A DNA stretch of 64,000 nt from a bacterium (GCA_030654225.1 JAURXY010000003.1:16056-80055), one strand, 5' to 3'. Counted from the first letter of the stretch, positions 19,666 through 50,243 are shown. A program made the numbers and translations. Notes: generated from the letters alone by a model not told the origin.

Positions 19666-19701
19666 ATTTTTTATGAAATTAAAAATTATTTAGGTTTTAA
19701 T

Positions 19702-20736
19702 TTAAAATTTACCAATAGCATTGAAAAAAATAATAGATGCCCATAATAAAACAATAAAAACAAAAAATATTTTGTTGGATATACTCATCTTCTCTGATGC
19801 CTTAAAAATATCAATAAAGTATTTAATAGAAAATACAAAAAATACAAAAAACATTAATGGAATAGAGAGATAAAATATATTTGCTTCGCTGGGGCAGGTT
19901 TCCATTAAGCGACAGGACCCTATATTTTTTAGATAAATTAATGCAATTAAAGAATATATAACAAATATACCACTTATTAACACTAAATTACGCACATTTT
20001 TCTTGAGGGATATATTTGCACCAATAATTTTTTGTTGAGATGTTTGAGGTATAAAATAGGTCAATAGTGAAAAAATAATAATAACTAAGATAATGGAATA
20101 TAAATTTTGCTGGCTTTTTCCTGAAAAAAAGTATGAACCACATGATTTTATAGTATTATTAGATTTCTTGCATGCGTTGCTGTTTCTTGCTGTAATGGAA
20201 CAATTATCAAGGCAACTATCTTTATGAAGGCGACCAAATGAGGAAGTTTTCAAATTATCACAAAAATCACAATTGTTTTTTATTTTTGCTAATCTTATGC
20301 TCGTTCCTTCAATACAGTGTTCTACTGCAGCTTGTTTATCAAAAGCAGTGCTTTCTTTTGTTGGTTCGCCATATAGATTGATTGTGAATGTTGCGGGAAA
20401 AGCATTGATTGTTTGATTGCAAAAAGAGATATCATTTTTCTGGGTGGCAAAGTACGCATAACAATTCCCAACTGTTTCATAGGAAGATCGATTATGGCTA
20501 CGGTTATAGGCTAAAGTATCTTCAGATATATTGCAATCAAGAATGTTGGAAAATTCTTTGCTTACTTTATATCTATCTGAGCCGTAGTCGGATATGTTAT
20601 TATTATTTTTTTTGGAATTTATAAAAAAAGCTATCAATAAGCTTATAATAAAAATTGAAGAAACGAAAACAATCTTTATTAGCTGTTCCTTCTTGTTATT
20701 TGGGGAATAATTAAAATTTTGATTTATTTGTTCCAT
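19702..20736 (-). CDS. Hypothetical Cys-rich membrane protein
   Basis: 344 aa. N-terminal TM helix, a Cys-rich presumed extracytoplasmic region, and several C-terminal TM helices. No recognisable catalytic motif. Confidence 0.45.
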   Translation of the reverse strand: MEQINQNFNYSPNNKKEQLIKIVFVSSIFIISLLIAFFINSKKNNNNISDYGSDRYKVSKEFSNILDCNISEDTLAYNRSHNRSSYETVGNCYAYFATQKNDISFCNQTINAFPATFTINLYGEPTKESTAFDKQAAVEHCIEGTSIRLAKIKNNCDFCDNLKTSSFGRLHKDSCLDNCSITARNSNACKKSNNTIKSCGSYFFSGKSQQNLYSIILVIIIFSLLTYFIPQTSQQKIIGANISLKKNVRNLVLISGIFVIYSLIALIYLKNIGSCRLMETCPSEANIFYLSIPLMFFVFFVFSIKYFIDIFKASEKMSISNKIFFVFIVLLWASIIFFNAIGKF

Positions 20737-20766
20737 AATTTTGAAATTAAAAATAAATTTTTACAG

Positions 20767-21396
20767 TTATTTTTTAAAACTTAATTCACTAACGGATTCT
20801 TCAATTGCTTTTCTAATTATTTTTTCTAATTTTGAATAATTATGATCATCTGCAAGTTGCAAAGCTTTGATATAATTATTTCTTCCTGAAATTGTTTCGA
20901 CTTTTAGTTCGATTGGTGGCAAGTTTAAATTAAGTAGAATAATATTATTTAACAATCTGCCGATTCTCCCATTATAATCTTGAAACGGATGAATCCAAGA
21001 AAATCTATGATGTGCCCAAGCGATTAAAAAAATCAATTCATCGAGAAATTTACTGTCATCAATTTTTGGCAAATGGTGCGTTCTTATTTGCAAGTCTTGA
21101 GTAAATTCAAGCATAAGTTGCGGTACCAAATAAAATTTCGGTGGGATATGCTTTGAAACCTTAACTTCAATGTTTCGATATTGGCCACCCATTTTTGGAA
21201 AAATCCAATTAAAGCCAATTTTGTGAATTTGCTTTATGAATTCTGGCGTGAGAGGCAAATTGCCTTTTTCGTTTTCTTGCAAAATAAAATCCCATGCCTT
21301 CTTTATTCCTTCAATTTCTAAAGGAATTAATTTGGAGCGTGGGATAATACCGAAAGACGTTTCTTTGTAGCTGGTTTCGCCTTTTCTTTTTTTCAT
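20767..21396 (-). CDS. Fic/DOC family protein
   Basis: HPFQDYNGRIGR matches the FIC motif HPFx[DE]GNGRxxR (G to Y at position 6). Confidence 0.8.
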   Translation of the reverse strand: MKKRKGETSYKETSFGIIPRSKLIPLEIEGIKKAWDFILQENEKGNLPLTPEFIKQIHKIGFNWIFPKMGGQYRNIEVKVSKHIPPKFYLVPQLMLEFTQDLQIRTHHLPKIDDSKFLDELIFLIAWAHHRFSWIHPFQDYNGRIGRLLNNIILLNLNLPPIELKVETISGRNNYIKALQLADDHNYSKLEKIIRKAIEESVSELSFKK

Positions 21397-21406
21397 CGTA
21401 TTGAAA

Positions 21407-21583
21407 TTAAGCTTTTTGCAAAACTTTTTTTACCATTTTTTGCGTTACTTCAGAATTTTCACTTTTAGTCGTTCGATAAACCATTTTATTTATAAACATA
21501 CCAAAATAATCCTGACGCATTTTGCTTTTTGCTGGGGATTTTTGAAAACTTTTTAAAATTTGAATCATTTGTTGTTTTGACAT
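21407..21583 (-). CDS. Small ORF (58 aa) upstream of fic. Candidate FicA/VbhA-like antitoxin
   Basis: The minus-strand ORF MSKQQMIQILKSFQKSPAKSKMRQDYFGMFINKMVYRTTKSENSEV... contains TTKSEN, matching the [ST]xxxE[GN] inhibitory motif of class I Fic antitoxins. It lies 10 bp upstream of the fic gene on the same strand and is absent from the ORF track because it is under 60 aa. Confidence 0.4.
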   Translation of the reverse strand: MSKQQMIQILKSFQKSPAKSKMRQDYFGMFINKMVYRTTKSENSEVTQKMVKKVLQKA

Positions 21584-21631
21584 ATCTTAAGATTAGCATA
21601 ATTAGCTTGCCTTGTCCATTTTTTTAGGAGG

Positions 21632-23254
21632 CTATATTTTCTTCACCATATAACTATCTTTCAATTTATACCCCAATTTTCGATAATATCCACGCACGCC
21701 GACGCCGGAAATTACTACAATTCTATCAAGCCCAAATTCTTTTTTGGTGATTTTTTCGGCCTCGAGGATTAGTTTTTTTCCAAGACCGATGTGTTGAGGA
21801 GAAATATTATCTTTTTGGTTGATCTGATTCATTTTACCATAAGTATGCACTTCTCTTATTATAGCAGAATTTTTTAGAACATTCGGGGCTATGCTTTTTT
21901 CGTTATTTATTCTTAGGCGTAAAAGTGCGAAAAGCTTAGACCTCACCCCAGCCCTCTCCTTATCAAGGAGAGGGAGCGTTGAATATTCTAAAAATATTTC
22001 TTGGCCGTCGCTGGAGGGATAGTCAATGCGATGCAAAATTATTTTTTCTTTGAGACTATAATCGGATCGCACTTCACGACAACGAATGCAAGGGCAGGTG
22101 GAATTTTTGGCGATTAGTTGGCGGAGATTGGAAACTTTTGGTCCGGCGATAATGGAACTTTCGGGTACATCACGCACCAGGCGAGAGATGCGAATATAAG
22201 GTGGAATAATTTCATTTTTAACGCGCAGGATAAATTTTTCAAAACTTTTGTCGGTGAGTGCTTTATATTTCCCGGCTTTCCATATTTTATACAGTGGACT
22301 TTGGCGAATAACGACAGTCGGATAAATCTTGAGCATATCAGGTTGGAAATTATGATCAGAAAAAAGTTTTTCAAACATTTGAAAATCTTTTTTGATGCTG
22401 GAGCCGAGAAGCCCTGGCATAATATGATAGTTGATTTTGAAACCAAAATCTTTGAGCAGTTTTGTAGCTTCGATAGTTCTTTGGACATTGTGTCCGCGTT
22501 TATTTTTTTCTAATACATCGTCAAAAATACTTTGCACCCCGAGTTCCACTCGAGTGCATCCAAGATTTCTAAAATTAATCAATTCTTCTGCGTCGATATA
22601 ATCCGGTCGTGTTTCCAGTGTCAGTCCGATTATTCTATGTTTAGCCGTCTCGTTTTTCTTCTGTTCCGTTTTTAATTTTATTTCAATATTGTTTCTTGTT
22701 TCTTGATTCTTGTTTCTTGATTTCGGATAATCATTACAAGCCCGAAAACACTCCAAAACAAATTTATTTTGATAACTTTTTGGCAGATAGGAAAAAGTTC
22801 CGCCCATCACGATAATCTCTATTTTGTCAGTTTTGTGGCCGTTGAGTTCTAGGGCGTGAATTCTTCTTTGCACTTGAAGATAAGGATTAAATTTAGCGGA
22901 AATGGCGCGCATCACAGCTGGTTCATTTGAGAGATAGCTTTTGGGCATTTCCACTTCATCGGGGCAATAAATGCATTTGCCTGGACAAGGATAACTTTTA
23001 GTAAGCACTGCCACCACAGCCACGCCAGAATCGGTGCGAATTTTTTTGCTAAAAAGGCAATTTTCTAAATCCGGATTGCGTTTGATTTTTTTTTGAGTAA
23101 TCATTTTTTCATAAAGTTCGCGAATGTCAGCGTTGGTTGGGAGTGGCAGTCCCAAATTTTTGCAAATTTCTTTTTTGCGTTTCAAAAAGAGCTCAGGATT
23201 TGAAATCTTGGTTTGGGTTGCTAGTTTTATGAAATTGTCATAGGATTTAAGCAT
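21632..23254 (-). CDS. elp3: Elp3-like tRNA uridine(34) modification enzyme (radical SAM + GNAT acetyltransferase)
   Basis: 540 aa. Radical-SAM core (CPGKCIYCPDE) and C-terminal GNAT (HIGLGKKLILEAEKITKKEFGLDRIVVISGVGVRGYYRKLGY). Contains two in-frame repeat or palindrome insertions. Confidence 0.85.
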   Translation of the reverse strand: MLKSYDNFIKLATQTKISNPELFLKRKKEICKNLGLPLPTNADIRELYEKMITQKKIKRNPDLENCLFSKKIRTDSGVAVVAVLTKSYPCPGKCIYCPDEVEMPKSYLSNEPAVMRAISAKFNPYLQVQRRIHALELNGHKTDKIEIIVMGGTFSYLPKSYQNKFVLECFRACNDYPKSRNKNQETRNNIEIKLKTEQKKNETAKHRIIGLTLETRPDYIDAEELINFRNLGCTRVELGVQSIFDDVLEKNKRGHNVQRTIEATKLLKDFGFKINYHIMPGLLGSSIKKDFQMFEKLFSDHNFQPDMLKIYPTVVIRQSPLYKIWKAGKYKALTDKSFEKFILRVKNEIIPPYIRISRLVRDVPESSIIAGPKVSNLRQLIAKNSTCPCIRCREVRSDYSLKEKIILHRIDYPSSDGQEIFLEYSTLPLLDKERAGVRSKLFALLRLRINNEKSIAPNVLKNSAIIREVHTYGKMNQINQKDNISPQHIGLGKKLILEAEKITKKEFGLDRIVVISGVGVRGYYRKLGYKLKDSYMVKKI

Positions 23255-24099: not shown

Positions 24100-24183
24100 T
24101 GCCCAAGGAGAGACTCGAACTCTCAAGAGATTACTCCCACGCGATTTTGAGTCGCGCGCGTATACCAATTCCGCCACTTGGGC
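24100..24183 (-). tRNA. tRNA-Leu (anticodon CAA)
   Basis: The reverse complement folds as GCCCAAG acceptor / GCG..CGC D-arm / CGCGA-CTCAAAA-TCGCG anticodon arm (CAA) / 15-nt variable arm / GAGAG-TTCGAGT-CTCTC T-arm / CTTGGGC-A. CCA is not encoded. Confidence 0.85.
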
Positions 24184-24238: not shown

Positions 24239-25030
24239 ATGGCAAAGATTATTTCATTAGTCAATCAAAAGGGCGGAGTGGGCAAAACTACCTCAGCCAT
24301 TAACCTAGCAACCTATTTGGCGGAGCTGGGCAAGTTTGTTTTGCTTGTGGACCTTGACCCACAAGGCAATGCTTCTTCTGGACTGGGACTAAATGTCAGA
24401 GAAATTGAAAAAAGTCTCTATCACTCAATGATACTCGGAGAACATCCGTCGAAAATCATTATGCGTACAGAAACTTTCGGCCATGATTTGATTCCTGCTT
24501 CGCAGGATTTGGCCGGAGCGGGGATTGAGCTTGTGCATATGGATAATCGTGAGTTTCGACTGTACAATGTTCTACGAGAAATTAGAACTAACTACGACTA
24601 CATTATAATTGATTCTCCACCAAGTCTCGGACTCCTCACAATTAATGGTCTGGTAGCGAGCGATGAAATTATTATTCCCGTGCAAACAGAATACTTTGCT
24701 TTGGAGGGTCTTAGTCAACTTCTAAATACTATTAATCTTATCAAAGAAAATCTTCAGCCTGAACTTAAGGTTATGGGCGCACTTCTCACGATGTATGACA
24801 AGCGAAATCGTTTGGCGCGTCAAGTAGTCAAAGAAGTGCAGGATCATTTTCCGGGGCATGTTTTTGAGAGTGTTATCCCTCGTTCAATTCGTTTGGCGGA
24901 AGCCCCAGGATTTGGCAAATCAATTTTGAGTTTTGATTCGCTTTCCAAAGGCGCGAGAGCTTACAAAAATCTAGCCAAAGAAATTATCGAACTAGATAAA
25001 AATAATAATAAAAAGGATTTTTCAGTTTAA
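24239..25030 (+). CDS. parA: Chromosome partitioning ATPase ParA/Soj
   Basis: Deviant Walker A NQKGGVGKTT, 263 aa, followed by parB. Confidence 0.9.
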   Translation: MAKIISLVNQKGGVGKTTSAINLATYLAELGKFVLLVDLDPQGNASSGLGLNVREIEKSLYHSMILGEHPSKIIMRTETFGHDLIPASQDLAGAGIELVHMDNREFRLYNVLREIRTNYDYIIIDSPPSLGLLTINGLVASDEIIIPVQTEYFALEGLSQLLNTINLIKENLQPELKVMGALLTMYDKRNRLARQVVKEVQDHFPGHVFESVIPRSIRLAEAPGFGKSILSFDSLSKGARAYKNLAKEIIELDKNNNKKDFSV

Positions 25031-25049: not shown

Positions 25050-25955
25050 ATGGCTCAGAATTATGGACTTGGTCGAGGACTGTCATCACTCATTCCTCAG
25101 AAATCAAAAAAAATTGATAAGCCAGCAGAAGATTTCAACTATTTTGGTGCTTCTGGAAAACCAATCGCGAACGTTTCTGAAGAGAAAAATGGCATAGAAG
25201 AAATTGAAATTTCAAAAATTGTGCCTAATCCCTATCAGCCACGAACGGTTTTTGATGAAGTAAAACTTCAAGAGTTGGCTGATTCTATAAAAGAACATGG
25301 AATAATTCAGCCGATCACAGTGAGTAAATCTGGTGGGCAATATGAAATTATTGCTGGTGAACGGCGTTTTCAGGCAGCTAAAATTGCCGGCCTCGCTGTT
25401 GTGCCGGTGATTATGCGAGAAACAACAACTGATCAACAAAAACTAGAATTGGCGATTATTGAAAATATTCAACGCCAAGATTTAAATCCAATTGAAGAGG
25501 CTAAATCATATTTGAAACTTACCAATGAATTCGCTCTTACACAAGAAGAGGTTGCAAAAAAATTAGGAAAAAATCGAAGTTCAGTAGCCAACAAAGTTCG
25601 ACTTTTGAATTTACCAATTGAAATTCAAAAAGCTCTAGTGGAAGGAAAAATTACGGAAGGACATTGTAAGTTGCTTTTGGCTATTCCTAACCCAGAAAAA
25701 CAAAGAGCTTTCTATGAACTGATAATCAAAAATGGTTTGACTGTGCGTCAAACGGAAGACAAAACCAAGGAAGTGACTGTCCACTCTCATAAAAGAAACA
25801 TTGTCGTTGACCCGGAAACCAAAAGCTTGGAAGACGAACTAATCGGCATCCTTGGCACCAAAGTCAAAATAAAAAAATCAGGTGGTGGTGGGCAGATTGT
25901 GATCGAATATTATTCCAAAGAAGAATTGAATAATATTTTGGGGAAGATAAAATAA
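25050..25955 (+). CDS. parB: Chromosome partitioning protein ParB/Spo0J
   Basis: ParB box GIIQPITV...YEIIAGERRFQAAKIAG plus an HTH. The final 90 bp are duplicated at 28756-28845. Confidence 0.9.
   Translation: MAQNYGLGRGLSSLIPQKSKKIDKPAEDFNYFGASGKPIANVSEEKNGIEEIEISKIVPNPYQPRTVFDEVKLQELADSIKEHGIIQPITVSKSGGQYEIIAGERRFQAAKIAGLAVVPVIMRETTTDQQKLELAIIENIQRQDLNPIEEAKSYLKLTNEFALTQEEVAKKLGKNRSSVANKVRLLNLPIEIQKALVEGKITEGHCKLLLAIPNPEKQRAFYELIIKNGLTVRQTEDKTKEVTVHSHKRNIVVDPETKSLEDELIGILGTKVKIKKSGGGGQIVIEYYSKEELNNILGKIK
25866..25955 (+). repeat. Direct repeat copy A (3' end of parB)
   Basis: 90 bp matching 28756-28845 with 4 mismatches. Confidence 0.9.
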
Positions 25956-25988
25956 ATTTATAAATAATTATTTTTAATAAACAAAACT

Positions 25989-26552
25989 ATGAAAAAAACA
26001 TTGCTAATTTTGGGGGTAGTCGTAGTTATTGTTGGTGGTTATATTTGGCTAACGTATAATAAACTCATAACTGCCAATGAAAACATTGACAATCAATGGG
26101 CGCAAGTGGAAACGCAATATCAAAGACGAATAGATTTAATTCCAAATCTTGTTGAGTCCGTTAAGGGCGTGATGAATCAAGAACAAAAAATATTTGGTGA
26201 TTTAGCTGAGGCTAGAACTCGCTATGCAGGCGCAACAAATGCTAATCAGAAAGTTGAAGCTGCTACTCAAGTGGATAGCGCTTTTGCTAGACTTTTAGCA
26301 GTAATGGAAAATTATCCACAATTAAAATCATCCGATAATGTACAAACACTCATGGCGCAATTAGAAGGAACAGAGAATAGAATTAGCGTTGAAAGAAAAA
26401 GATATAATGATTCAGTCAAAGATTTCAATGTTATGATCAAAAGAATTCCAGACAAATGGATTGCAAATTCTTTAGGATTTTCAGAAAAAAATTATTTTGA
26501 AGCTACGAAGGGATCTGAAAATGCTCCAAAGGTTGATTTAAAAAACAACTAA
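25989..26552 (+). CDS. lemA: LemA family protein
   Basis: N-terminal TM helix then NENIDNQWAQVETQYQRRIDLIPNLVESVKG, characteristic of the LemA family. Confidence 0.85.
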   Translation: MKKTLLILGVVVVIVGGYIWLTYNKLITANENIDNQWAQVETQYQRRIDLIPNLVESVKGVMNQEQKIFGDLAEARTRYAGATNANQKVEAATQVDSAFARLLAVMENYPQLKSSDNVQTLMAQLEGTENRISVERKRYNDSVKDFNVMIKRIPDKWIANSLGFSEKNYFEATKGSENAPKVDLKNN

Positions 26553-26555
26553 AAA

Positions 26556-27575
26556 ATGATTTCTAGAATCATAAAATTTTCGCTACTTCTTTTTATATTT
26601 TTTGCTTTTCCAGTAAAAGCTTATTATAATCCGGGAACTCCAACCGGATTTGTTAATGATTATGCAGGAATATTAAGCGCAGAACAAAAACAAACGCTGG
26701 AAAGCAAGCTTTCACAATTTGAAAAAAACTCAAGCAATGAAATTTCTGTGGTGACTGTCCCAAGCTTGAAGGATGATACAGTTGAAAATTTTGCAGTTGA
26801 ACTTTTCAAGGACTGGGGCATTGGCAAAAAAGATAAAGATAATGGCGTGTTGGTTTTGGTCGCACTTTCTGACAAGAAAATGAGAATTGAGGTTGGCTAT
26901 GGTCTAGAAGGCACGCTTACGGATGCACAGGCTAGCTGGATAATTAGCGATATAATGAGACCAGCTTTTCAAAAAAGTGATTATTATTCTGGAATAAATG
27001 GAGCAGTGGATAAAATTGTTGCTTCAATTAACGGAGAAAATATTATTCTTCAAGATGCTAAGCAAAAAGTAAAAATTCAAGAGATAGAAAAAAAATTAAG
27101 AGAGTCGCAACCGATTGTTGATTCTGTATATTCAATAAAACATCCCATTGGAATCCTAGGTGTTCTGCAATTTATTATTGGGATTCTTTTGTTAACACTT
27201 CTTTTGATAACTGTTTATTCTGGATTTTATATTCCTTATATATTAGTAAGGTTAATTCTTGGTGTATTAGGTAAAAATAAAAGCTGGGTAGCAGGTGGGA
27301 TATTCGGAGGAATGATTGGAACTTCAATTGGAATTTTAAAAGAAAGTTTGTATAATGGATTACTTTGGTCTTTTATTCTTATACCAATTAGCCTTCTGCT
27401 TGATTTTTATCTTTCGAAATATAATACATTTTGGAAAAAAGATCTTAAGAGCTTATTAAAAACAAAAGGTGGTAAAAAAGGTGGATTTTGGTCAGGAGGG
27501 TCCTCCGGTGGTGGAGGTTTTGGTGGATTTGGTGGCGGGAGTTCCGGAGGCGGAGGCGCTAGCGGAGGTTGGTAA
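26556..27575 (+). CDS. TPM-domain protein with C-terminal TM segments and Gly-rich tail
   Basis: Signal/TM then YAGILSAEQKQTLESKL...SVVTV...GVLVLVALSDKKMRIEVGYGLEG (TPM fold signature). The C-terminus reads GGSSGGGGFGGFGGGSSGGGGASGGW. LemA-TPM pairs are a common gene neighbourhood. Confidence 0.8.
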   Translation: MISRIIKFSLLLFIFFAFPVKAYYNPGTPTGFVNDYAGILSAEQKQTLESKLSQFEKNSSNEISVVTVPSLKDDTVENFAVELFKDWGIGKKDKDNGVLVLVALSDKKMRIEVGYGLEGTLTDAQASWIISDIMRPAFQKSDYYSGINGAVDKIVASINGENIILQDAKQKVKIQEIEKKLRESQPIVDSVYSIKHPIGILGVLQFIIGILLLTLLLITVYSGFYIPYILVRLILGVLGKNKSWVAGGIFGGMIGTSIGILKESLYNGLLWSFILIPISLLLDFYLSKYNTFWKKDLKSLLKTKGGKKGGFWSGGSSGGGGFGGFGGGSSGGGGASGGW

Positions 27576-27634
27576 ATATGATATACTAAATTTAGAAGGA
27601 AGGTAGTATTTAATTAAAATAATTTAATAAAAAA

Positions 27635-28192
27635 ATGAAGATCTCAATGAGCAAAACGAGGGAACAGTTCCCCCTGAGTACGAAAAAAGTTCTCAAGAAA
27701 ACCGTAGCAGGAACATTAATTTGGTCAATATTATTATTTATAATCTGGCTTTTTGTCACTGTTGCTGTTGTTGTAAATAATAAAAGCTCTGCGGGGATAG
27801 CAGGAATAATAACATTGGCAATCTTTGGATTAATGGCCTTAATTATATTCGGGACATATTTTTATCAAAAGTGGTATTATTCGGTGTATTTTTATGATCT
27901 TACGGATGATTTTATTATCATTAAAAAAGGACCAATCACACCAAGCGAAATTACAATTCCATACGAAAGAGTGCAGGATGTTTATGTCGATCAGGATTTA
28001 CTGGATAGATTATTTGGAATTTATGATGTTCATTTGTCTAGTGCGACGATTTCCTCTGGCATGGAAGCTCATATAGATGGTGTAGAAAAAGTGGCGGCCG
28101 ATGGTTTGCGTGGATTTTTATTACAAACTGTTCAACAAAAAATTGGTAGAAAAAATAATCAAAATTTAAACAATAATCAACCTAATCAATAA
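27635..28192 (+). CDS. Membrane protein with bacterial PH (bPH_2/YdbT-like) domain
   Basis: Two TM helices then ITIPYERVQDVYVDQDLLDRLFGIYDVHLSSA, typical of bPH_2/DUF304. Confidence 0.6.
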   Translation: MKISMSKTREQFPLSTKKVLKKTVAGTLIWSILLFIIWLFVTVAVVVNNKSSAGIAGIITLAIFGLMALIIFGTYFYQKWYYSVYFYDLTDDFIIIKKGPITPSEITIPYERVQDVYVDQDLLDRLFGIYDVHLSSATISSGMEAHIDGVEKVAADGLRGFLLQTVQQKIGRKNNQNLNNNQPNQ

Positions 28193-28196
28193 AAAT

Positions 28197-28748
28197 ATGG
28201 AAAATATTTCACAAGTAATAACAGAAAAAAATTATCCCATCACAAAGCTTTGGATTTTTAAAGCCCCTATCATTATCATTTTATTAAATGTGGTTGCTTT
28301 ATTTTTTGGTTATTATTTTCCTTATCTTGTTTTAGCTATACCTATTATGTTAATTGTTAATCCTCTAATTAGAGCAAATTTTCATTATTCACTGGATGAT
28401 AAATTTTTCGATATAAAACAAGGAGTTATATCAAAAAAGCGAAGAAGCTTGCCTTATGGAGTTATTCAGAATGTTTTTGTTAAACAAGATTTATTTGATA
28501 GAATTTTTGGATTGGCTACTTTGAGAGTTGAAAACGCTTCGCAGGCAGGTGGTGGCAGTGGTGAACGCTGGTGGAACAAGAGCTATGGTTCAAAAGCTAC
28601 TGCTTATGGACAAAATGAGGGCGTTGGTTCTTCTGGGAATAAAGTGAATATCCCAGGACTTAAGAAACAAAACGCAGAAGACTTAAAAAGTTATATTCTT
28701 CAAAAGATAAAAGAAAATCCAATTGAAGATAGCCAATCAGGATTATAA
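28197..28748 (+). CDS. Membrane protein with bacterial PH (bPH_2/YdbT-like) domain, paralog
   Basis: Two TM helices then LPYGVIQNVFVKQDLFDRIFGLATLRVENA. Paralogous to the preceding gene. Confidence 0.6.
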   Translation: MENISQVITEKNYPITKLWIFKAPIIIILLNVVALFFGYYFPYLVLAIPIMLIVNPLIRANFHYSLDDKFFDIKQGVISKKRRSLPYGVIQNVFVKQDLFDRIFGLATLRVENASQAGGGSGERWWNKSYGSKATAYGQNEGVGSSGNKVNIPGLKKQNAEDLKSYILQKIKENPIEDSQSGL

Positions 28749-28755
28749 TATTATA

Positions 28756-28845
28756 AAAATAAAAAAATCAGGTGGTGGTGGGCAAATTGTGATTGAATAT
28801 TATTCCAAAGAAGAACTGAATAATATTTTAGGGAAGATAAAATAA
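28756..28845 (+). repeat. Direct repeat copy B (non-coding duplicate of the parB 3' end)
   Basis: aaaataaaaaaatcaggtggtggtgggcaaattgtgattgaatattattccaaagaagaactgaataatattttagggaagataaaataa is 86/90 identical to 25866-25955. Lies outside any annotated gene. Confidence 0.9.
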
Positions 28846-29038
28846 TTAGATGTTAGAAAAAATTATTCAAGTAGCTGTTGAATTTTATAAAAAAATTATT
28901 GGCGTATATTGGCCGACTTATTTTTCGTGGCTCACAGAAAAACTAAGTGGAACGGAACCATTTGCAACGCTTTTAATTTCAATCTTTCTAATTTTCGCAC
29001 TTATAATTTATATTTGGTTTCGTAACCGCAACGACTAA

Positions 29039-30517
29039 CTAAATCATCCCTTCTTTCTTCATAAACTTTTTGATATGTGATTTGGCGGCGGAGGTTTTGA
29101 CGAAGCGAAGCCAGTCTCGGCTGGGGTTTTTGTGATCTTTAGTGGTGAGTATTTCAAGTACGTCCCCATTTCTTACTTTATAGTCCAGTGGCACCATCTT
29201 ACCATTTGCTTTGGCGCTCATAGCGCGGTCACCAATTTCACTGTGCACCCTATAGGCAAAATCAATAGGGGCGGCTTCTTCGGGCAGATCAATAACATCA
29301 CCTTTCGGAGTAAAAGCAAAAATGTGATTTTTGAAAAAATCAATCTTGAGACTTTCTATAAATTCTTTGTCATCCTTGCCAAGTTCATTTTGCCATTCGC
29401 GCAGTTGTTTTACCCAAGCAATTTCTTTCTCCGGAACCTTGGCTTTTTCGCGAAAGAAGAAATTTTTGAAAGTTTTTTTCTTTTCAGAATATATCCAATG
29501 GGCGGCAATTCCAAATTCTGCTTCATCATCCATTTGTTTGGTGCGAATTTGAATTTCCAAAAAATTTCCGGCTGGTCCAAAAATTGTAGTGTGAATGGAT
29601 TGATAGCCATTAGGTTTTGGCAAGGAAATGTAGTCCTTAATGCGTCCAACTAGCGGTCTATATTTTTTGTGTACAATGCCCAGTGTTTCATAGCAATTGA
29701 CAATTTCTGGTACGATGATTCGAATGCCAGCTAAATCATAAATTTTTCCAATGTCCATATCATGTTTTTTGAGTTTTTGGAAAAGACTGTACAGTCGTTT
29801 GGATCGGCCAAAAATTTCGAGGACTTGAATTTTTTCTTGAGACAATTCTTTTTTTAGCTCTGCTACCATAACATCAATGTATTTTTTCATAGCTTCTTTT
29901 TGTTCGGCGGATATTTTGGCAGTATACTGATAGTTTTCTTTATCCAAAAATTTGAAAGCCAAATCTTCTAGGTTGCCTTTCATCTCTCCAATTCCCAGTC
30001 GATTGGCAATGGGCGCAAAAACATCCAGCGTTTCTCTGGCAATTCGCTCTTGTTTTTCTGGTGGCAAACTTTCGAGCGTTTCCATGTTATGCAACCGATC
30101 AGCTAGTTTGATTATCACCACGCGAATATCTTCAGCCATAGCCAAAAACATTTTGCGAAGATTTTCCAAATAATTTTCTTCTTTTGCTCCGCGCAATTTT
30201 ATTTTTCCAAGCTTTGTTACCCCATCAACCATTTTGGCAATTTCCGGTCCGAAATTTTTTTCTATTTCTTCCAATGTGACTTGGGTGTCTTCTGGAACAT
30301 CATGCAAGAGTCCCGCGGAAATTGTTTTTGAGCCCATTCCCATATGGGCTAGATTTAAGGCGGTATGTAATGAGTGCTGAATATAGTCTTCGCCCGATTT
30401 TCTTTTTTGACCAATATGTGCATTAAGAGCTGTCTGATAAGCACTTCTAATCAAAGCTTCTCGACGAGAATCCATAGTAAGTTTGGAATTTTTTATTACA
30501 TCTTCAATAGTTATCAT
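29039..30517 (-). CDS. rel: Bifunctional (p)ppGpp synthetase/hydrolase, short RelA/SpoT homolog
   Basis: HD hydrolase (HSLHTALNLA...LLHDVPEDT), synthetase (YDLAGIRIIVPEIVNCYETLGIVHKKYRP...YQSIHTTIFGP) and TGS regions. 492 aa. Confidence 0.9.
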   Translation of the reverse strand: MITIEDVIKNSKLTMDSRREALIRSAYQTALNAHIGQKRKSGEDYIQHSLHTALNLAHMGMGSKTISAGLLHDVPEDTQVTLEEIEKNFGPEIAKMVDGVTKLGKIKLRGAKEENYLENLRKMFLAMAEDIRVVIIKLADRLHNMETLESLPPEKQERIARETLDVFAPIANRLGIGEMKGNLEDLAFKFLDKENYQYTAKISAEQKEAMKKYIDVMVAELKKELSQEKIQVLEIFGRSKRLYSLFQKLKKHDMDIGKIYDLAGIRIIVPEIVNCYETLGIVHKKYRPLVGRIKDYISLPKPNGYQSIHTTIFGPAGNFLEIQIRTKQMDDEAEFGIAAHWIYSEKKKTFKNFFFREKAKVPEKEIAWVKQLREWQNELGKDDKEFIESLKIDFFKNHIFAFTPKGDVIDLPEEAAPIDFAYRVHSEIGDRAMSAKANGKMVPLDYKVRNGDVLEILTTKDHKNPSRDWLRFVKTSAAKSHIKKFMKKEGMI

Positions 30518-32811: not shown

Positions 32812-32960
32812 TATAGGACTTACGCACTTCTCTTCAAATCTATTGTTCGCTGAAATTACAAAAAAATAAACTAAGATTATAGATAGTAATTATAGATTTC
32901 AATCCTGCCATTGTACTGGCTACATAAATAGATTTTCAGAAAAATGCGTAAGTCCTATTA
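32812..32960. repeat. ~150-bp intergenic element bounded by 15-17-bp inverted repeats (TATAGGACTTACGCA ... TGCGTAAGTCCTATTA)
   Basis: Left IR at 32812-32826 and right IR at 32945-32960 are reverse complements. The right IR overlaps the dprA stop codon, and the element sits upstream of the topA start. Confidence 0.6.
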
Positions 32961-34076
32961 TAGTTGAATATAATTTTGTCCGCCAATGTTTTTTACCCAG
33001 CCTTTAATTTCCATCATTGAAAGTGTGCCGGAACACATTGCTGTTTGCAGTTTAGCTAGTTTAGCAATATTGTCAATGTGAAGCGGATCAGTGGAAAGGA
33101 TTTTTAGCAGTATTTTTTCTTCAGCAGTCGTTGGATTTTTTGGAGATAATTCTTTTCTCACAGTTTCTTTGTTTAAATCTAATTCTTCCAGGATATCTTT
33201 TATCCCCGTAACAACGCGGGCACCAGATTTTATGAGATTATTGGTGCCGAAAGATAGTGGGGAAAAGATTGAACCCGGCACAGAAAAAATTTCTCGATTA
33301 TATTCCAGGGCCATATTAGCTGTTATAAGTGAACCGCTTTTTTCTCCCGCTTCAATTACGATTGTTCCAAGTGTAAGCCCAGCGATAATTCTGTTTCTAG
33401 CAGGAAAAGTCATTGGTCCGGCAGGCATTTCCAACGGATATTCGCTAACAAGGGCTCCACTTCTCATTATTTCACGAGATAAATTGAAATTATTTCTTGG
33501 ATAAATATTTATATCATCTAAACTGTTGCCAAGAACAGCAATAGTTTGCCCGGCATTGTCCAGTGCACCTCGGTGAGCGAAGGTGTCAATGCCAAGCGCC
33601 ATTCCACTCACAACTACAACGCCAGCGCTAGCTAAATCTTTGGCGAGGCTAGTGGCAATTTGCGAACCATAAGCAGTGTATCTTCTTGAGCCAACAATGG
33701 AAATCATCGGAGAGGCATTTATATTAAATTCTCCTTTTGTATAAATAATATATGGAGGGTTGTTAATTTCTTTGAGAAGGGCAGGGTAGAGCGAATCGGG
33801 AAGGGTAATCATCTGGATATTTTCTTTTTGCATTTTTTCCCATTCAAAATCAGGGTTAATATTGGCTTTTTCCAAGAATATTTTTTCGGCTAATTTTTCT
33901 CCAACAGCACTATTTTTAAGATCTTCTAGGCTGGCGTGCCAAATATTTTCACCAGTTTCGAAAAAATTCAAAAGCATCTGCATTTTTTTTGCTCCAACTC
34001 CAGCGATTTTGTTTAGCGCGTTCAAATATTTCATAAGTTCTCTTTCAATGTAGCACAAAAGTGAAAAACTTGACAA
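32958..34076 (-). CDS. dprA: DNA processing protein DprA/Smf
   Basis: ISIVGSRRYTAYGSQIATSLAKDLASAGVVVVSGMALGIDTFAHRGAL is the DprA Rossmann-like core. Confidence 0.9.
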   Translation of the reverse strand: MSSFSLLCYIERELMKYLNALNKIAGVGAKKMQMLLNFFETGENIWHASLEDLKNSAVGEKLAEKIFLEKANINPDFEWEKMQKENIQMITLPDSLYPALLKEINNPPYIIYTKGEFNINASPMISIVGSRRYTAYGSQIATSLAKDLASAGVVVVSGMALGIDTFAHRGALDNAGQTIAVLGNSLDDINIYPRNNFNLSREIMRSGALVSEYPLEMPAGPMTFPARNRIIAGLTLGTIVIEAGEKSGSLITANMALEYNREIFSVPGSIFSPLSFGTNNLIKSGARVVTGIKDILEELDLNKETVRKELSPKNPTTAEEKILLKILSTDPLHIDNIAKLAKLQTAMCSGTLSMMEIKGWVKNIGGQNYIQL

Positions 34077-34111
34077 ATATTCAATCTATGCTAGAATAGT
34101 CTACTAATATG

Positions 34112-34149
34112 CGATGCGAATCTACGAATGACATGCGAATCTACGAATA
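34112..34149 (+). promoter_or_regulatory. Dispersed element: tandem ATGCGAATCTACGAAT dimer
   Basis: gatgcgaatctacgaatgacatgcgaatctacgaataaa. The same 38-bp dimer recurs at 36516-36553 and 50651-50688, with variants at 43207-43245, 50046-50084 and 50205-50243. Confidence 0.6.
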
Positions 34150-35222
34150 AATTCAAAGGAATGATTAAAAATAAACTAAAAAATTCAGAAATTGTGAGCA
34201 GAAGCGACAAAAAATCGCTATTTTTAGGTTTATCAAACGATTTGCTTTCTGGGTTGAATCAACGATCTCGAGAAATAGTGCAGAAAAGATTTGGTCTTTT
34301 GAATGGAAACCGAGAAACACTGGATAAAATTGGGCGTCACTATGGGATAACAAGAGAAAGAGTGCGACAGATAATTTTTGAAGCGCTTCGAAATATCTCC
34401 GCCAAAACGGAACATGAAAGCTTTGTGAGCGCCGAAGAAAAAATAATTTTTACAATTAACCAAAACGATGGTATAATAAAAGTAAGTGAAATTATTGAAA
34501 AATTTAATTCCACTGGACAAGCGGAAGCGAACGCTATAAAGTTTTTTGCTCTTTGTTCTAAGAGAATTTTAGAAGCTGAAGAAAAAAATGTTTTTGAAAA
34601 GATTTGGACAGTTTCTGAAGATATACTTTCTGAGGTGAAGAAAACTTTAACTGAAGCTGAAAAAATTGTCAAAGAAGAAAAGAGGTTGTTTAGTGACGAG
34701 GAAATTATCGAGAAACTTTTTTCTGCTTTGCCACATTTGCCAAAAGGAAAAATTCTAAACTTTCTCAAAACCTCAGCTAACATCAAGAAAAATAAGTTTG
34801 GCAAGAGAGGCATGAAAAATTGGGCGGAAGTTTCCCCAAAAGGAACGCGAGAAAGGGTACATCTAGTTCTCAAGGAACACAAAAAACCCTTGCATTTTGT
34901 GGAAATCGCCAGTCTTATTGACAAATTTGAATTAGGCAAGAGAAAAGCTCATCCGCAAACTGTGCACAATGAATTAATCAAGGATGAAAGATTCGTTTTG
35001 ATTGGAAGAGGAATCTATGCACTCCGCGAATGGGGATATTCTGAAGGGACAATTCAGGAAGTGATCAAGAGTATTTTGAAGGAAAAGAAAAAACCTCTGA
35101 AAAAAGAAGAGATAATTGAAGAAGTTTTGAGAATTCGAAAAGTAAAAAAAACTACGATTAGTATCAATTTGAATAATGCTAAAATTTTTGAGAGAAAAAA
35201 CGAGACTTATACTATAAAATAA
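34128..35222 (+). CDS. Sigma-70 region-4 (HTH) domain protein with uncharacterised C-terminal domain
   Basis: LSGLNQRSREIVQKRFGLLNGNRETLDKIGRHYGITRERVRQIIFEALRNI matches sigma-70 region 4.2. The start is probably the MIKNK ATG at 34161. About 250 further aa have no recognisable motif. Confidence 0.55.
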   Translation: MTCESTNKFKGMIKNKLKNSEIVSRSDKKSLFLGLSNDLLSGLNQRSREIVQKRFGLLNGNRETLDKIGRHYGITRERVRQIIFEALRNISAKTEHESFVSAEEKIIFTINQNDGIIKVSEIIEKFNSTGQAEANAIKFFALCSKRILEAEEKNVFEKIWTVSEDILSEVKKTLTEAEKIVKEEKRLFSDEEIIEKLFSALPHLPKGKILNFLKTSANIKKNKFGKRGMKNWAEVSPKGTRERVHLVLKEHKKPLHFVEIASLIDKFELGKRKAHPQTVHNELIKDERFVLIGRGIYALREWGYSEGTIQEVIKSILKEKKKPLKKEEIIEEVLRIRKVKKTTISINLNNAKIFERKNETYTIK

Positions 35223-35240: not shown

Positions 35241-36512
35241 ATGAACAACGCTTCGGACATCTTCGCAATATTTGTAGCCTTGTGGCAAGCCATCAGTTTT
35301 TTTTGGTGGATTATATTGCCGATAATGTTTTGGTATATTTTCAAAATTATTTGGAAAGACTTCACTCTTGTCAAATCTGTTATTTCTTGGCGAAGGCTTC
35401 AGCAGTGGACATTTGTGGAGATAATTCCTCCACGAGAGATTGAAAAAGGTCCCAAAATGATGGAAACTATTTTTTCCAGTATGGCTGGAGTCTTGTCGAC
35501 ATACAACACTTTTGATGAATATTTAAAAGGAGCTTGGGAACACGACCGTTTTAGTTTGGAAATTGTGGGAGAAGAAGGAAAGCTCCATTTCTATATCCGC
35601 ACGCAAAAAAGATTTTTGGGACTTGTGGAAGCTAATATCTATGCACAATATCCAGACGCAGAAGTTTTGGAGGTGCCCGACTATACGGCAAATTTTCCGA
35701 AAATTATTCCCAACAAAGATTGGGATCTTTGGGGGACTGATTTTGAATTTGTAGCCAAAGGTCCGATTCCAATTAAGACTTATGACAGATTTGAAGAAAC
35801 TGTTTCAGGAGAAATGAATGATCCAATGTCGGCTATTGCGGAAATAATCGGATCGCTTGGTCCTGGGCAGCACATTTGGCTTCAATACGTTTTGCAACCC
35901 TTGCCAGAGCCAGAAGCAAAAAAGAAAGAGCATATGGATGTGTTAAAAAAACTCAAAGGAGAAAAAGTGGTTGAGGTAATGGGACTTGGCGGACATCTGA
36001 TAGACGTTTTTTCTAATTTAACCAAGGGCTTGTCGGCTCCCGTAGAATTTGCAGCAGCAAAAAAAGAAGAATTGGGGCCATTGGAATTTCGACTTTCTCC
36101 GGGGGAAAAAGATCTTTTGAAAGCTACTGAAGAAAATCTAGGGAGAAATCTTTTCAAAACAAAAATGCGCTATATTTATTTGGCAAAAAAAGATAGTTGG
36201 GATGGATCATATAAAACTTCTTTTATCGGGGCATTGAAACAATTTAATGATTTGAATTTTAATCAGTTTAAGCCGGAAGATATTTCTAAAACTTATGGAA
36301 AAATATTTTTTACTGAGCCAAGAGCTAATATAAGGAAAAGAAAACTTCTGAATCGCTATAGATTTCGTAATATGGATGGAGTGAATATGATTTTTTCTAC
36401 CAAAGAATTGGCGACAGTGTTTCATTTCCCTGATATGGGAGTAAAATCACCTGCGGTACAAAGAACTGCGGGAAGATTGGGTAGTGCGCCGGCTAATTTA
36501 CCAATAGAATAA
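35241..36512 (+). CDS. Hypothetical membrane-anchored protein (2 N-terminal TM helices)
   Basis: 423 aa, N-terminal FAIFVALWQAISFFWWIILPIMFWYIF then a soluble domain. No recognised motif. Located immediately upstream of the VirD4-like ATPase. Confidence 0.45.
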   Translation: MNNASDIFAIFVALWQAISFFWWIILPIMFWYIFKIIWKDFTLVKSVISWRRLQQWTFVEIIPPREIEKGPKMMETIFSSMAGVLSTYNTFDEYLKGAWEHDRFSLEIVGEEGKLHFYIRTQKRFLGLVEANIYAQYPDAEVLEVPDYTANFPKIIPNKDWDLWGTDFEFVAKGPIPIKTYDRFEETVSGEMNDPMSAIAEIIGSLGPGQHIWLQYVLQPLPEPEAKKKEHMDVLKKLKGEKVVEVMGLGGHLIDVFSNLTKGLSAPVEFAAAKKEELGPLEFRLSPGEKDLLKATEENLGRNLFKTKMRYIYLAKKDSWDGSYKTSFIGALKQFNDLNFNQFKPEDISKTYGKIFFTEPRANIRKRKLLNRYRFRNMDGVNMIFSTKELATVFHFPDMGVKSPAVQRTAGRLGSAPANLPIE

Positions 36513-36515
36513 ACC

Positions 36516-36553
36516 GATGCGAATCTACGAATTTAATGCGAATCTACGAACAA
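36516..36553 (+). promoter_or_regulatory. Dispersed element: tandem ATGCGAATCTACGAA dimer
   Basis: gatgcgaatctacgaatttaatgcgaatctacgaacaa, 35 nt upstream of the ATPase start codon. Confidence 0.6.
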
Positions 36554-36587
36554 AATACGAAAAATTTTATTAATTACAAAAATTACA

Positions 36588-38450
36588 ATGGGTGATATTA
36601 ACTTATTTGCTAAAACTAATTTTAGGAATCAAGAAAGAAGTTTTGGGATAAAAACAGATGACCGTAGGCGTCATATGTATGTGATTGGAAAGACTGGAAT
36701 GGGAAAATCTAACATGTTGGAAAACATGGCGATTCAAGATATTCAAGCTGGCCGGGGAATGTGCTATGTTGATCCGCACGGTGAAGGCGCAGAAAAAATG
36801 CTTCGAGCTATTCCGGCTAATCGCATAAATGATGTGGTCTATTTCAATCCGGCGGACAAAGAATTTCCAATTGCTTTTAACATTCTGGAATCAGTCGAGG
36901 AGGACAAAAAACATTTGGTGGCTTCTGGCATGATGGGAGTTTTCAAAAAAATCTGGCCAGATGTTTGGAGTCCAAGAATGGAATATATTTTGAACAATAC
37001 GATTTTGGCACTACTAGATTATCCTGGTTCGACAATGCTTGGAGTGAATCGAATGATGAGTGACAAAGATTATAGAAAAAGAGTTTATCCAAAGATAAAA
37101 GATCCGGTGGTGAAATCTTTTTGGCTGAATGAATTTGATAAATGGGAAGATAAATTCAGAAAAGAAGCCGTAGCGGCTATTCAAAACAAAGTGGGACAAT
37201 TTTTGTCATCTTTTGTCATTCGTCATATCGTAGGGCAACCAAAATCTTCCATTGATATGCGAGATATTATGGATAATGAGAAAATTTTAATTGTTAATCT
37301 TTCTAAGGGGAGAATTGGAGAGGATGCCATGAGACTTTTGGGCGGAATGATTGTGACTAAAATTCAGTTGGCGGCAATGGGACGAGTAGAAATTCCAGAA
37401 AATGAAAGAAAAGATTTTTTTCTTTATGTGGATGAATTTCAAAATTTCGCCACTGAATCTTTTGCTAATATTTTGTCCGAAGCTAGAAAATATCGTTTAG
37501 CTTTAATTTTAGCGCATCAATATGTCAATCAGTTGATTTTTGATGGCAATACCACAGTGCGAGATGCCATTTTTGGCAACGTTGGAACAATCGTTTCTTT
37601 TCGCGTTGGAGCGGAAGATGCTGAGGCTTTGGAAAAAGAATTCGATCCTGTTTTTTTAATGAACGATATTGTGAATCTTTCCAAATATCAAATGTATTTG
37701 AAGCTCATGATCGATGGTATTGCCGGAGATGCTTTCAGCGCTACTTCTCTTCCGCCGATAAGTCTAGCTGATACTGAAAATAATGAAGGAAAGGCAATAG
37801 CTGTTTCGCGTGAACGCTATGGAAAATCCAGAAAAGAAGTGGAAGAAAAAATTGCGCGTTGGAGCGGAATGTTTGATTTTGAAGAATTTGAAAATGAAGG
37901 AGGCGGAGAAAAGGTTGACACGGAAAAGCCTAAAGAAAAAAATATTATTATTCCTAATCCACAAGCGAAAAAATCAAGATTAAATAACGTAGAAAGAGAT
38001 AGTAATAGTATAAAAAATGAGGCAGTGATTAAGGCTGTAATTCCAGTTGAAAAAATTATTAACACTGAAATTAAGGAAGAGAAAAAAATGTACGACGCCG
38101 TTTGTAGTAATTGTGATGAAAAAATTCAAGTGCCATTTGCGCCTGATCCGAAACGACCAACTTTTTGCAAGGAATGTCTCAAGGAATATCAAAGAGCCAG
38201 AGCGGTAAATCAAAAAGAAAAAGAAGAAAAGCAAAGTTATGTAGCGAAAAGAGAGATTACTCCGAAATATTCGCGAGATGAAGAGAGACAGCAAAATTCA
38301 AAACCGGATGTGATTGTTTCCTGCGACAAGCCGATGAGTCTTTCTCAAATGTCGCATATTGCACCCAAAAAATTCAAGTCTCTTCGAAAAAAATCGGAAG
38401 TTAATTTAGCTGACGTGAGAAATTTGATAAACCAAACAAAAAATAATTAA
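36588..38450 (+). CDS. AAA-like ATPase of the TraD/TraG/VirD4 (type IV coupling protein, DUF87-like) family with C-terminal zinc ribbon
   Basis: Walker A HMYVIGKTGMGKSN, Walker B FFLYVDEFQNF, and the RLALILAHQ motif characteristic of the TraG/VirD4 C-terminal domain. C-terminal CSNCDEKIQ...CKEC zinc ribbon. No N-terminal TM region. Confidence 0.6.
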   Translation: MGDINLFAKTNFRNQERSFGIKTDDRRRHMYVIGKTGMGKSNMLENMAIQDIQAGRGMCYVDPHGEGAEKMLRAIPANRINDVVYFNPADKEFPIAFNILESVEEDKKHLVASGMMGVFKKIWPDVWSPRMEYILNNTILALLDYPGSTMLGVNRMMSDKDYRKRVYPKIKDPVVKSFWLNEFDKWEDKFRKEAVAAIQNKVGQFLSSFVIRHIVGQPKSSIDMRDIMDNEKILIVNLSKGRIGEDAMRLLGGMIVTKIQLAAMGRVEIPENERKDFFLYVDEFQNFATESFANILSEARKYRLALILAHQYVNQLIFDGNTTVRDAIFGNVGTIVSFRVGAEDAEALEKEFDPVFLMNDIVNLSKYQMYLKLMIDGIAGDAFSATSLPPISLADTENNEGKAIAVSRERYGKSRKEVEEKIARWSGMFDFEEFENEGGGEKVDTEKPKEKNIIIPNPQAKKSRLNNVERDSNSIKNEAVIKAVIPVEKIINTEIKEEKKMYDAVCSNCDEKIQVPFAPDPKRPTFCKECLKEYQRARAVNQKEKEEKQSYVAKREITPKYSRDEERQQNSKPDVIVSCDKPMSLSQMSHIAPKKFKSLRKKSEVNLADVRNLINQTKNN

Positions 38451-49827: not shown

Positions 49828-50046
49828 ATGAATAATAAAGAATTAGTTAAATTAGAAGGAGAAGTTGTGGAAAATTTGCCTAGCACAACGTTCAAGGTAA
49901 AATTGGATAATGGCCATGAAATCTTGGCTCATATTTCTGGAAGAATGCGAGTGAACTATATTCGTCTTATTCCAGGAGATAGAGTTATTGTTGAAATGAG
50001 TCCATACGACCTAACCAAAGGTAGAATTACTCAAAGATTAAAATAG
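49828..50046 (+). CDS. infA: Translation initiation factor IF-1
   Basis: [72 protein letters not shown] is the S1-like IF-1 fold. The start is the internal ATG of the 49777 ORF. Confidence 0.9.
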
Positions 50047-50084
50047 CATGCGAATAGCGCGCTACGAATGCGCCCATGCGAATG
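50046..50084 (+). promoter_or_regulatory. Dispersed-element variant ATGCGAAT-[AGCGCGCTACGAATGCGCCC]-ATGCGAAT (infA-rpmJ spacer)
   Basis: Read directly. Ends 8 nt before the rpmJ ATG. Confidence 0.5.
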
Positions 50085-50091
50085 AAATAAT

Positions 50092-50205
50092 ATGAAAGTA
50101 AGAGCATCAGTAAAAAAAATTTGTGATAAATGTAAAATTGTTAAAAGAAACAAAAAGATTTTTGTTATTTGTTCTAATCCAAAGCATAAACAACGTCAAG
50201 GATAG
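50092..50205 (+). CDS. rpmJ: 50S ribosomal protein L36
   Basis: Translates to [37 protein letters not shown] (37 aa, C-x2-C...C-x4-H zinc ribbon). Missing from the ORF track because it is under 60 aa. Confidence 0.85.
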
Positions 50206-50243
50206 CATGCGAATAGCGCACTACAAATGCGCCCATGCGAATT
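50205..50243 (+). promoter_or_regulatory. Dispersed-element variant ATGCGAAT-[AGCGCACTACAAATGCGCCC]-ATGCGAAT (rpmJ-rpsM spacer)
   Basis: Near-identical copy of 50046-50084. Confidence 0.5.

Follow-up and report, generated by a model that had tools for sequence, protein, structure and literature searches.

A four-gene block bracketed by a 90-bp duplication of the parB 3' end in a Moranbacteria genome: a lineage-specific gain, probably by microhomology-mediated illegitimate insertion

Results

The terminus of parB carries a duplication and, to judge from relatives, a derived insertion

The DNA analysed here, a stretch of 64,000 nucleotides (nt) from a bacterial contig (GCA_030654225.1, JAURXY010000003.1:16056-80055; hereafter the window, with positions counted from its first letter), contains an intact parB gene whose last 90 nt occur a second time 2.8 kb downstream, and the two copies enclose four genes for membrane proteins. 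Comparison with the homologous loci of related genomes indicates that the block is a derived, lineage-specific insertion, and we consider it probable (about 0.7) that it was gained by a one-off, microhomology-mediated illegitimate insertion which copied 90 nt of parB once more. The locus adds one more case to a known class of events and reveals no new mechanism or genetic element. The inserted segment comprises 2890 bp on the + strand (25956-28845 or, equivalently, 25866-28755), consists of a 33-nt leader, the four genes and one copy of the 90-mer, and is missing from all the relatives described below.

The initial annotation had reported that the 90-bp 3' end of parB recurs with 4 mismatches outside any gene, and our alignment bears this out. 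Copy 1 (25866-25955, + strand) completes parB and corresponds to its last 29 codons and TAA stop, encoding part of the ParB_C dimerisation domain. Copy 2 (28756-28845, + strand) is an orphan parB tail outside the annotated genes, which starts 7 nt past the stop codon (28746-28748) of the last inserted gene, ends 4 nt ahead of an open reading frame (ORF) of 62 amino acids (aa), and overlaps no listed ORF of at least 50 aa. The two copies form a gap-free direct repeat with 86/90 identities, a match far beyond chance, whose mismatches fall at repeat positions 30, 39, 61 and 75 and whose longest common exact run is 29 nt. Read in the frame of parB, none of the four mismatches changes an amino acid, which had not been noted before. 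The 60 nt flanking each copy are dissimilar, so the borders of the repeat are sharp, and the 7-mer AAAATAA is found at both its start and its end. Across the 64 kb this is the longest and best repeat, and a search of the window that allowed up to 20 substitutions found no third copy.

Relatives were gathered by a ParB scan with one genome per species, through RelA homologues and their contigs, and with a degenerate DNA pattern of the parB tail in metagenomes. The ParB scan places the window in Candidatus Moranbacteria/Moraniibacteriota (Patescibacteria), the nearest ParB relatives being L001 (UBA12116, 98% identical), L002 (89%) and L003 (83%). The initial annotation had offered insertion at the parB terminus with target duplication as one reading and had proposed that relatives be inspected for an empty site with a single 90-mer; such a site, with one copy of the parB tail in each case, was found in six distinct relatives (L002/L093, L087-L090, L091/L097, L094, L095/L099 and L098), whose ParB proteins are 88-97% identical to that of the window over the full protein, with one partial contig in addition. 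In these genomes 4 nt separate parB from the 62-aa ORF, beyond which come the convergent genes relA-topA-dprA. The 62-aa ORF retains 69-81% aa identity and exactly the same 4-nt spacing in L002, L087-L091, L094, L095, L097 and L098. The segment 28754-29033 of the window is colinear with the parB end and 62-aa ORF of L002, which places copy 2 in the ancestral right-hand context, including the ancestral junction of TAA, 4 nt and the ATG of the 62-aa ORF, and copy 1 in the ancestral left-hand context. Compared with the empty sites no recipient sequence has been lost, while 90 nt have been duplicated.

The wider survey agrees with this polarity. parB faces relA in 28 of the 80 loci fetched by ParB similarity, which come mostly from Patescibacteria, and topA and dprA usually follow, while lemA, TPM or bPH genes lie near parB in none of the 80. 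It is because of the empty sites in six relatives and this absence of the cassette genes that we read the 2890-bp block as derived. We saw no relative that carries the cassette without a flanking repeat. The arrangement with parB facing relA is kept down to about 42-50% ParB identity (for example in L007, L010, L014, L016 and L037), and several records of metagenome-assembled genomes (MAGs) with this parB-relA order are labelled Gammaproteobacteria or other phyla.

Both copies of the repeat carry TCA at codon 5, a state found in no relative, and ATA at codon 2, found otherwise in L003 only. These shared lineage-specific states indicate that resident sequence was duplicated within this lineage and was not imported, and on their account a foreign parB allele brought in as copy 2 was rejected. 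Divergence between the copies is 4.4%, against about 10% at the nucleotide level between parB and its nearest relatives, so that the duplication is younger than those splits. The same data bear on the opposite polarity, in which the cassette and both repeats would be ancestral and a precise exchange between the repeats would have removed the block from the relatives. Recombination of this kind would leave exactly the empty site seen in the relatives, but at least six independent precise losses would be needed in addition to the absence of the block from distant Patescibacteria in which parB faces relA, and neither the low divergence of the copies nor the derived states unique to this lineage would be expected. 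Furthermore, the closest homologue of the TPM-domain protein, the source record aside, is just 53% identical (L081), so close relatives appear to have no orthologue. We regard an ancestral cassette as extremely improbable.

Thirteen nucleotides of microhomology mark the right-hand junction

The right-hand end of the insertion was compared with the bPH_2 region of L100/L101, the closest relative of the pair, which is 83% identical to the window at the nucleotide level. Homology to this region extends past the stop codon of the second bPH_2 gene up to 28768, homology to the parB tail begins at 28756, and the overlap of the two is the 13-mer AAAATAAAAAAAT; the native 3' flank of the bPH_2 pair in L100/L101 thus equals the first 13 nt of the repeat, and at the new right junction the cargo's own flank and the recipient are identical over 13 nt. 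Within parB the same 13 nt (25866-25878, + strand) form the codons K-I-K-K-S, and the right-hand illegitimate join would have landed on them. In 805 kb of AT-rich loci, with both strands counted and the sites of interest excluded, the 13-mer occurs 12 times (about 7.5e-6 per position), and the chance of finding it within about 20 nt of the second bPH_2 stop codon is about 1e-4 to 5e-4. This stop codon is surrounded by an 8-nt tandem duplication, ATTATAAT|ATTATAAA (28742-28757, + strand), where the window has 7 extra nucleotides at the junction relative to L100/L101.

At the left-hand end, the lemA leader resembles L081 and L085 as far as the parB stop codon; the AT-rich identity there amounts to about 5 nt at best, too little to place the join. 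The AAAATAA at the stop codon represents a weaker alternative landing site: the A-rich cargo flank could pair there over 7 nt, without any duplication, or 90 nt upstream over 13 nt, with duplication, and the better match would be the one that was used.

A return join upstream of the departure point would explain the duplication

In the scenario that we favour, the ancestor had parB, 4 nt, the 62-aa membrane ORF and then the convergent relA-topA-dprA genes. Two accessory modules totalling 2.8 kb, lemA-TPM and the bPH_2 pair, would have been joined exactly at the parB stop codon without a transposase or integrase, the DNA having possibly arrived by a route such as natural transformation. The left join would lie at the stop codon (AAAATAA/TAAAT region), while at the right join the A-rich native flank of the bPH_2 pair would have paired with the 13 nt of parB that lie 90 nt ahead of its stop codon. 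Since the return point lay behind the departure point, the final 90 nt of the gene would have been copied twice. Two versions of this event can be envisaged. In one, replication would have switched template, leaving parB at its stop codon, copying the cargo and returning at the 13-mer; in the other, a linear fragment would have invaded ends-in, with gap repair and a crossover, to give a Campbell-type insertion-duplication. With either version copy 1 would leave parB intact and copy 2 would leave the 62-aa gene its native upstream sequence.

Several points weigh against this account. The 13-nt identity is read from a relative just 83% identical and not from the true donor, the window holds 7 extra nt (TATTATA) between the second bPH_2 stop codon and the 13-mer, and the left junction cannot be followed beyond its short AT-rich similarity. 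The two modules may have arrived in separate events, in which case a single-event model may be too simple. Classical homology-facilitated illegitimate recombination (HFIR) yields deletions, not duplications (PMC3240628). All four differences between the copies are synonymous, with P of about 0.02-0.05 if copy 2 is neutral, and this is not what a neutral relic predicts. Finally, the arrangement is present in only one assembly.

The last point also favours an assembly or binning artefact, that is, a chimeric contig joining strains or organisms in which the second tail would be unreal, as does the fact that the occupied junction (28740-28772) gave no match in an exact search of the metagenome collection. 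Exact look-ups of ParB, the 62-aa ORF and a TPM record 100% identical to that of the window (P0001) in a contig index likewise gave no match. However, the copies differ at 4 sites and their exact identity is too short to mislead assemblers at usual k sizes, and building the contig requires both novel junctions to be present in reads. No gene is disrupted, the spacing at the two junctions is tight (33 nt and 7 nt), the window-specific synonymous states are present in both copies, and the microhomology signature is a biological feature, not one that an assembler would produce. A collapsed or chimeric join is thus unlikely, and an artefact of any such kind has, in our estimate, only a slight chance of being the explanation.

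The illegitimate insertion that we favour resembles HFIR and template-switch insertions, in which likewise no dedicated recombinase acts and kilobase-scale foreign DNA comes to lie beside intact host genes; the natural-transformation gene dprA in the neighbourhood of the insertion is a further likeness to HFIR. The illegitimate joins of HFIR mostly involve 3-10 bp of microhomology (PMC3240628), compared with 13 nt in the window. Classical HFIR uses one long homologous anchor and deletes recipient sequence, whereas the window has no demonstrable anchor and 90 nt are duplicated. We therefore do not file the event as classical HFIR, and the duplication in place of a deletion suggests that, through a template switch or ends-in gap repair, the return join was made upstream of where parB had been left.

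The architecture of the locus, in which a target segment, an insert and the same target segment stand as direct repeats, is identical to that of Campbell-type insertion-duplication, so that homologous recombination must be weighed as well. A circle already carrying the cassette together with about 90 bp of the parB tail would integrate by one crossover, and flanking direct repeats equal to a piece of the target are its classic product. Single crossovers of re-circularised molecules have given target duplications of 109-950 bp (PMC3240628), a range said to bracket the 90 bp of the window, both arrangements would be reversible through their repeats, and the two copies here encode an identical peptide. 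Against this, a Campbell event needs a circular donor with a homologous segment, and the circle would have to hold this lineage's own parB tail, with the TCA codon that no relative has, for which there is no apparent source; the homology in the window may instead stem from gap repair. Nor would a circle explain why the repeat starts exactly at the 13-mer of the bPH_2 flank, unless the circle was itself made by the same microhomology join, in which case this explanation merges with the illegitimate insertion. We consider a pre-formed homologous circle unlikely, albeit the least unlikely of the alternative routes.

The block lacks mobile-element machinery and the parB boundary has changed repeatedly

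Pfam searches covered every ORF of the block and, in the region of about 16-43 kb, those ORFs that reach at least 150 aa, and identified no integrase, recombinase, transposase or rve domain. The target duplications of transposons are short and of fixed length, typically 2-15 bp. A transposon or insertion sequence (IS) with target-site duplication was accordingly rejected: the 90-bp duplication is far outside this range, there is no transposase, and terminal inverted repeats are lacking. The candidates for such repeats were AT-rich pairs at chance level, such as 25957-25981 with 27609-27633 (25 nt, 76% complementary), of which there are 65 in 7 kb.

Two other groups of relatives show that the post-parB boundary, which heads the conserved parB-relA-topA-dprA neighbourhood, tolerates repeated change, with three states among close relatives. 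In L003/L092 an ORF of 143 aa without a Pfam match lies between parB and the 62-aa ORF (L003 10909-11357). This insert, which has no flanking repeat beyond a direct one of 9 nt (ATAAAATAR), may reflect a similar event on a small scale. In L001/L096 synteny stops exactly at the parB stop codon and more than 10 kb of unrelated genes follow (L001 10907-20903), among them an ATP-grasp enzyme, a phosphopantetheinyl transferase and ORFs that by eye resemble non-ribosomal peptide synthetase components of adenylation and thioesterase types; neither the 62-aa ORF nor relA was found within reach downstream of parB in L001. No second parB tail was present in L001-L003 or L087-L091 (in L001, none within 10 kb), and the degenerate tail pattern identified 8 metagenome loci with one copy each, hence no orphan tail elsewhere.

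These observations are relevant to the possibility that a small mobile element integrated site-specifically at the parB 3' end with an integrase acting in trans. As in the islands and prophages that occupy the 3' ends of tRNA or tmRNA genes, the target gene is intact and its 3' end exists in two copies, of which the displaced one stands at the far side of the insert; the 90-nt direct repeats, a candidate attachment core, enclose the four-gene block exactly, and the parB stop codon is a recurrent breakpoint, as L003/L092 and L001/L096 illustrate. Unlike such islands, the block has no integrase, excisionase or recurrent element, there is no recombinase in or near it, and its cargo is four ordinary membrane-protein genes in two housekeeping-like modules known from unrelated chromosomal contexts. 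Each locus examined in other genomes has one tail copy, so the core is not duplicated at the same site elsewhere, and the junction shows microhomology with the cargo's native flank. Site-specific integration is, on this evidence, very improbable. We conclude that the block is best read as a one-off illegitimate-recombination scar and is not a mobile cassette or mobile element.

Apart from the parB boundary, the window has a second indel relative to L001 at 19691-21632, between the dxs side and a radical-SAM gene, which contains two genes on the minus strand, one an ORF of 344 aa without a Pfam match and the other encoding a Fic/DOC protein; in L087 and L091 this position is occupied by other genes. 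No flanking direct repeat longer than 10 nt was found at this indel, which indicates that insertions in this genome do not generally come with long duplications at their flanks.

The cargo combines two independent gene modules

The four inserted genes lie on the + strand and are separated from parB and from each other by spacers of 33, 3, 59 and 4 nt; given this common orientation and the short spacers, they are probably co-transcribed with parAB. The first is lemA (25989-26552, 187 aa; Pfam LemA, 3.3e-54, 183 bits), followed by a gene for a TPM-domain membrane protein with a Gly-rich C-terminus (26556-27575, 339 aa; Pfam TPM_phosphatase, 1.8e-44, 151 bits), and these two constitute module 1. 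Module 2 consists of two YdbS/YdbT-like Pfam bPH_2 genes, bPH_2 protein 1 (27635-28192, 185 aa) and bPH_2 protein 2 (28197-28748, 183 aa), with scores of 50 and 62 bits respectively; the matches of all four genes lie above the gathering score. The two bPH_2 proteins are 28% identical to each other and are thus old paralogues. No paralogue of any of the four genes was found elsewhere in the window.

Each module has its own distribution in other genomes. The lemA-TPM pair, with lemA directly followed by the TPM gene as in the window, is found in two other contexts, namely L085, another Moranbacteria MAG in which it follows fusA (a gene not in the window), and L081; the LemA protein is 88% identical to that of L081 and 80% identical to that of L085. 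On L081 (2449-3426), a contig of 4 kb, the pair, which is the closest lemA-TPM relative, has an rve-family (IS-type) transposase two genes downstream, a placement which hints that the lemA-TPM module can sit in mobile contexts elsewhere. The bPH_2 pair, with a spacing of 4-5 nt, is found in four other contexts (L100/L101, L102-L105, L106/L107 and L108), across which protein 2 shows 79-90% identity (90% aa identity to P0242 of L100/L101), while protein 1 is 90-93% identical to partial genes on L100/L101 and 81% identical to that of L102. In no other genome examined is lemA-TPM adjacent to the bPH_2 pair. The gene content given by the initial annotation for a four-gene cassette therefore stands, with Pfam matches to LemA, TPM and two bPH_2 proteins; its description as a single unit does not, since the modules are never adjacent elsewhere, and on these distributions the cassette is best described as a composite of two independent two-gene modules.

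The GC content at third codon positions is 0.21-0.29 in the cargo and 0.28-0.37 in its neighbours, a mild difference that is not decisive for a foreign origin. The cargo matched none of the PADLOC models for known and candidate anti-phage defence systems, and no viral carrier of the bPH gene was found in IMG/VR.

With regard to function, the ydbS-ydbT operon of B. subtilis belongs to the sigma-W regulon (PMC3498285), and the YdbS/YdbT-like homologues DdE/DdF have been implicated in the transport or export of leaderless bacteriocins (PMC8657885). The bPH_2 genes of the window are adjacent and co-oriented like ydbS-ydbT, but YdbT is a three-domain protein of 493 aa whereas the two window proteins are short and single-domain. 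By analogy with these families, a role of the cargo as small membrane proteins of the cell envelope is plausible; the "membrane stress" label used in the initial annotation derives from family annotation alone, and our literature search found nothing usable on the function of LemA-TPM operons.

The second copy is most likely a young relic

We think it most likely that copy 2 is mainly a young, decaying relic. Copy 2 alone has A at repeat position 30 and C at position 61, as expected for such a relic, and the other two sites at which the copies differ are polymorphic among relatives. It is nevertheless conceivable, if doubtful, that copy 2 has been kept as a functional element, whether it provides the promoter or the translation start for the 62-aa gene or is itself translated as a mini-ORF. 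That all four differences are synonymous would fit with this. One third of the possible transitions in these codons are synonymous, and the probability of an all-synonymous set ranges from 0.11, if only two changes are informative, to 0.012 for four; the polymorphism of two of the sites in the population weakens the signal to about 0.11, so that the pattern is suggestive but weakly significant.

Synonymous variability is reduced at the end of parB in eight relatives, where synonymous sites of the last 10 codons (25926-25955) are variable in 3 of 9 cases compared with 157 of 220 elsewhere (Fisher p = 0.023). The parB tail contains a weak promoter-like sequence, TTGAAT-16-TAAAAT (9/12), which overlaps these codons and whose -10 element stands 6 nt ahead of the ATG downstream, and the reading frame of copy 2 is open from 28711 with a TTG at 28723. 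On the other side, the -35-like hexamer is altered to CTGAAT in copy 2, the promoter-like sequence scores no better than many chance matches (32 in all, where 21 are expected), and copy 2 has no Rfam family and no stable RNA fold (z = 0.04). In addition, the 62-aa gene is intact in L003/L092, where no more than about 12 nt of parB tail precede it, and hence the 90 nt are not required for this gene. Plausibly, then, a functional part of copy 2 would be limited to its last 12-15 nt, the start region of the 62-aa gene, and the extreme 3' end of parB may double as an overlapping start region for it.

Translation of copy 2 as a mini-ORF of about 40 aa (TTG at 28723 to TAA at 28845, overlapping the end of the second bPH_2 gene) would explain why all differences are synonymous, and we consider it highly unlikely. 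Its product would be a free ParB C-terminal dimerisation fragment, which could modulate ParB dimerisation or couple translation to the 62-aa gene.

The repeats could allow loss or amplification of the block

Excision or amplification through the repeats, as suggested in the initial annotation, is plausible: recombination of the RecA type between the two copies could delete the block, and it would restore the wild-type site with the same ParB. Excision should occur at a low rate because the longest uninterrupted identity is 29 nt. The presence or absence of the four membrane-protein genes would be a testable, reversible polymorphism for population studies. The scar is real and neatly resolved, but it records an ordinary gene gain in one Moranbacteria lineage. 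It is of value as a clear case from nature of gene gain without mobile-element machinery in the streamlined genome of an uncultured member of the Patescibacteria, with both junctions, the empty site and the junction microhomology all visible at one locus.

Genes and repeats around the insertion site

The parB gene (25050-25955, + strand, 301 aa) encodes a protein with matches to Pfam ParB_N, HTH_ParB and ParB_C (PF02195, PF17762 and PF23552), each above its curated cut-off, and to NCBIfam parB_part; with parA (24239-25030; Pfam ParA) directly upstream, it qualifies as a chromosomal protein of the ParB/Spo0J type. Despite the presence of parAB, no match to the Bacillus-type parS consensus TGTTNCACGTGAAACA with up to 2 mismatches was found in the window (1-64000) or in the duplicated segment. 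A single tRNA gene, the sole Rfam match in the window, lies at 24100-24183 (- strand) between a methyltransferase gene and parA.

Downstream of copy 2, the conserved membrane ORF of 62 aa (28850-29038, + strand), which was previously unannotated and directly follows parB in the relatives with an empty site, has no match in Pfam or NCBIfam. It is followed by the convergent relA/spoT gene (29039-30517, - strand; Pfam HD_4, RelA_SpoT and TGS), which flanks the insertion site and was the neighbour of parB in the ancestral order; topA and dprA (32958-34076) lie beyond it. At 36588-38450 an ORF resembles type IV secretion coupling proteins, with TrwB/TraG domains and a zinc finger, in a neighbourhood also present in L087-L090; together with dprA it represents DNA-uptake or transfer functions close to the insertion site.

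A family of repeats with tandem ATGCGAATCTACGAAT units is found at three or more sites of the window (34106-34153, 36509-36556 and 50643-50690) with 81-92% identity, and a related pair is located at 50043-50083 and 50202-50242. The first copy of this family covers the start of a sigma-70-like ORF (34128-35222) just past the end of dprA, and the second covers the end of the ORF at 35241-36512.

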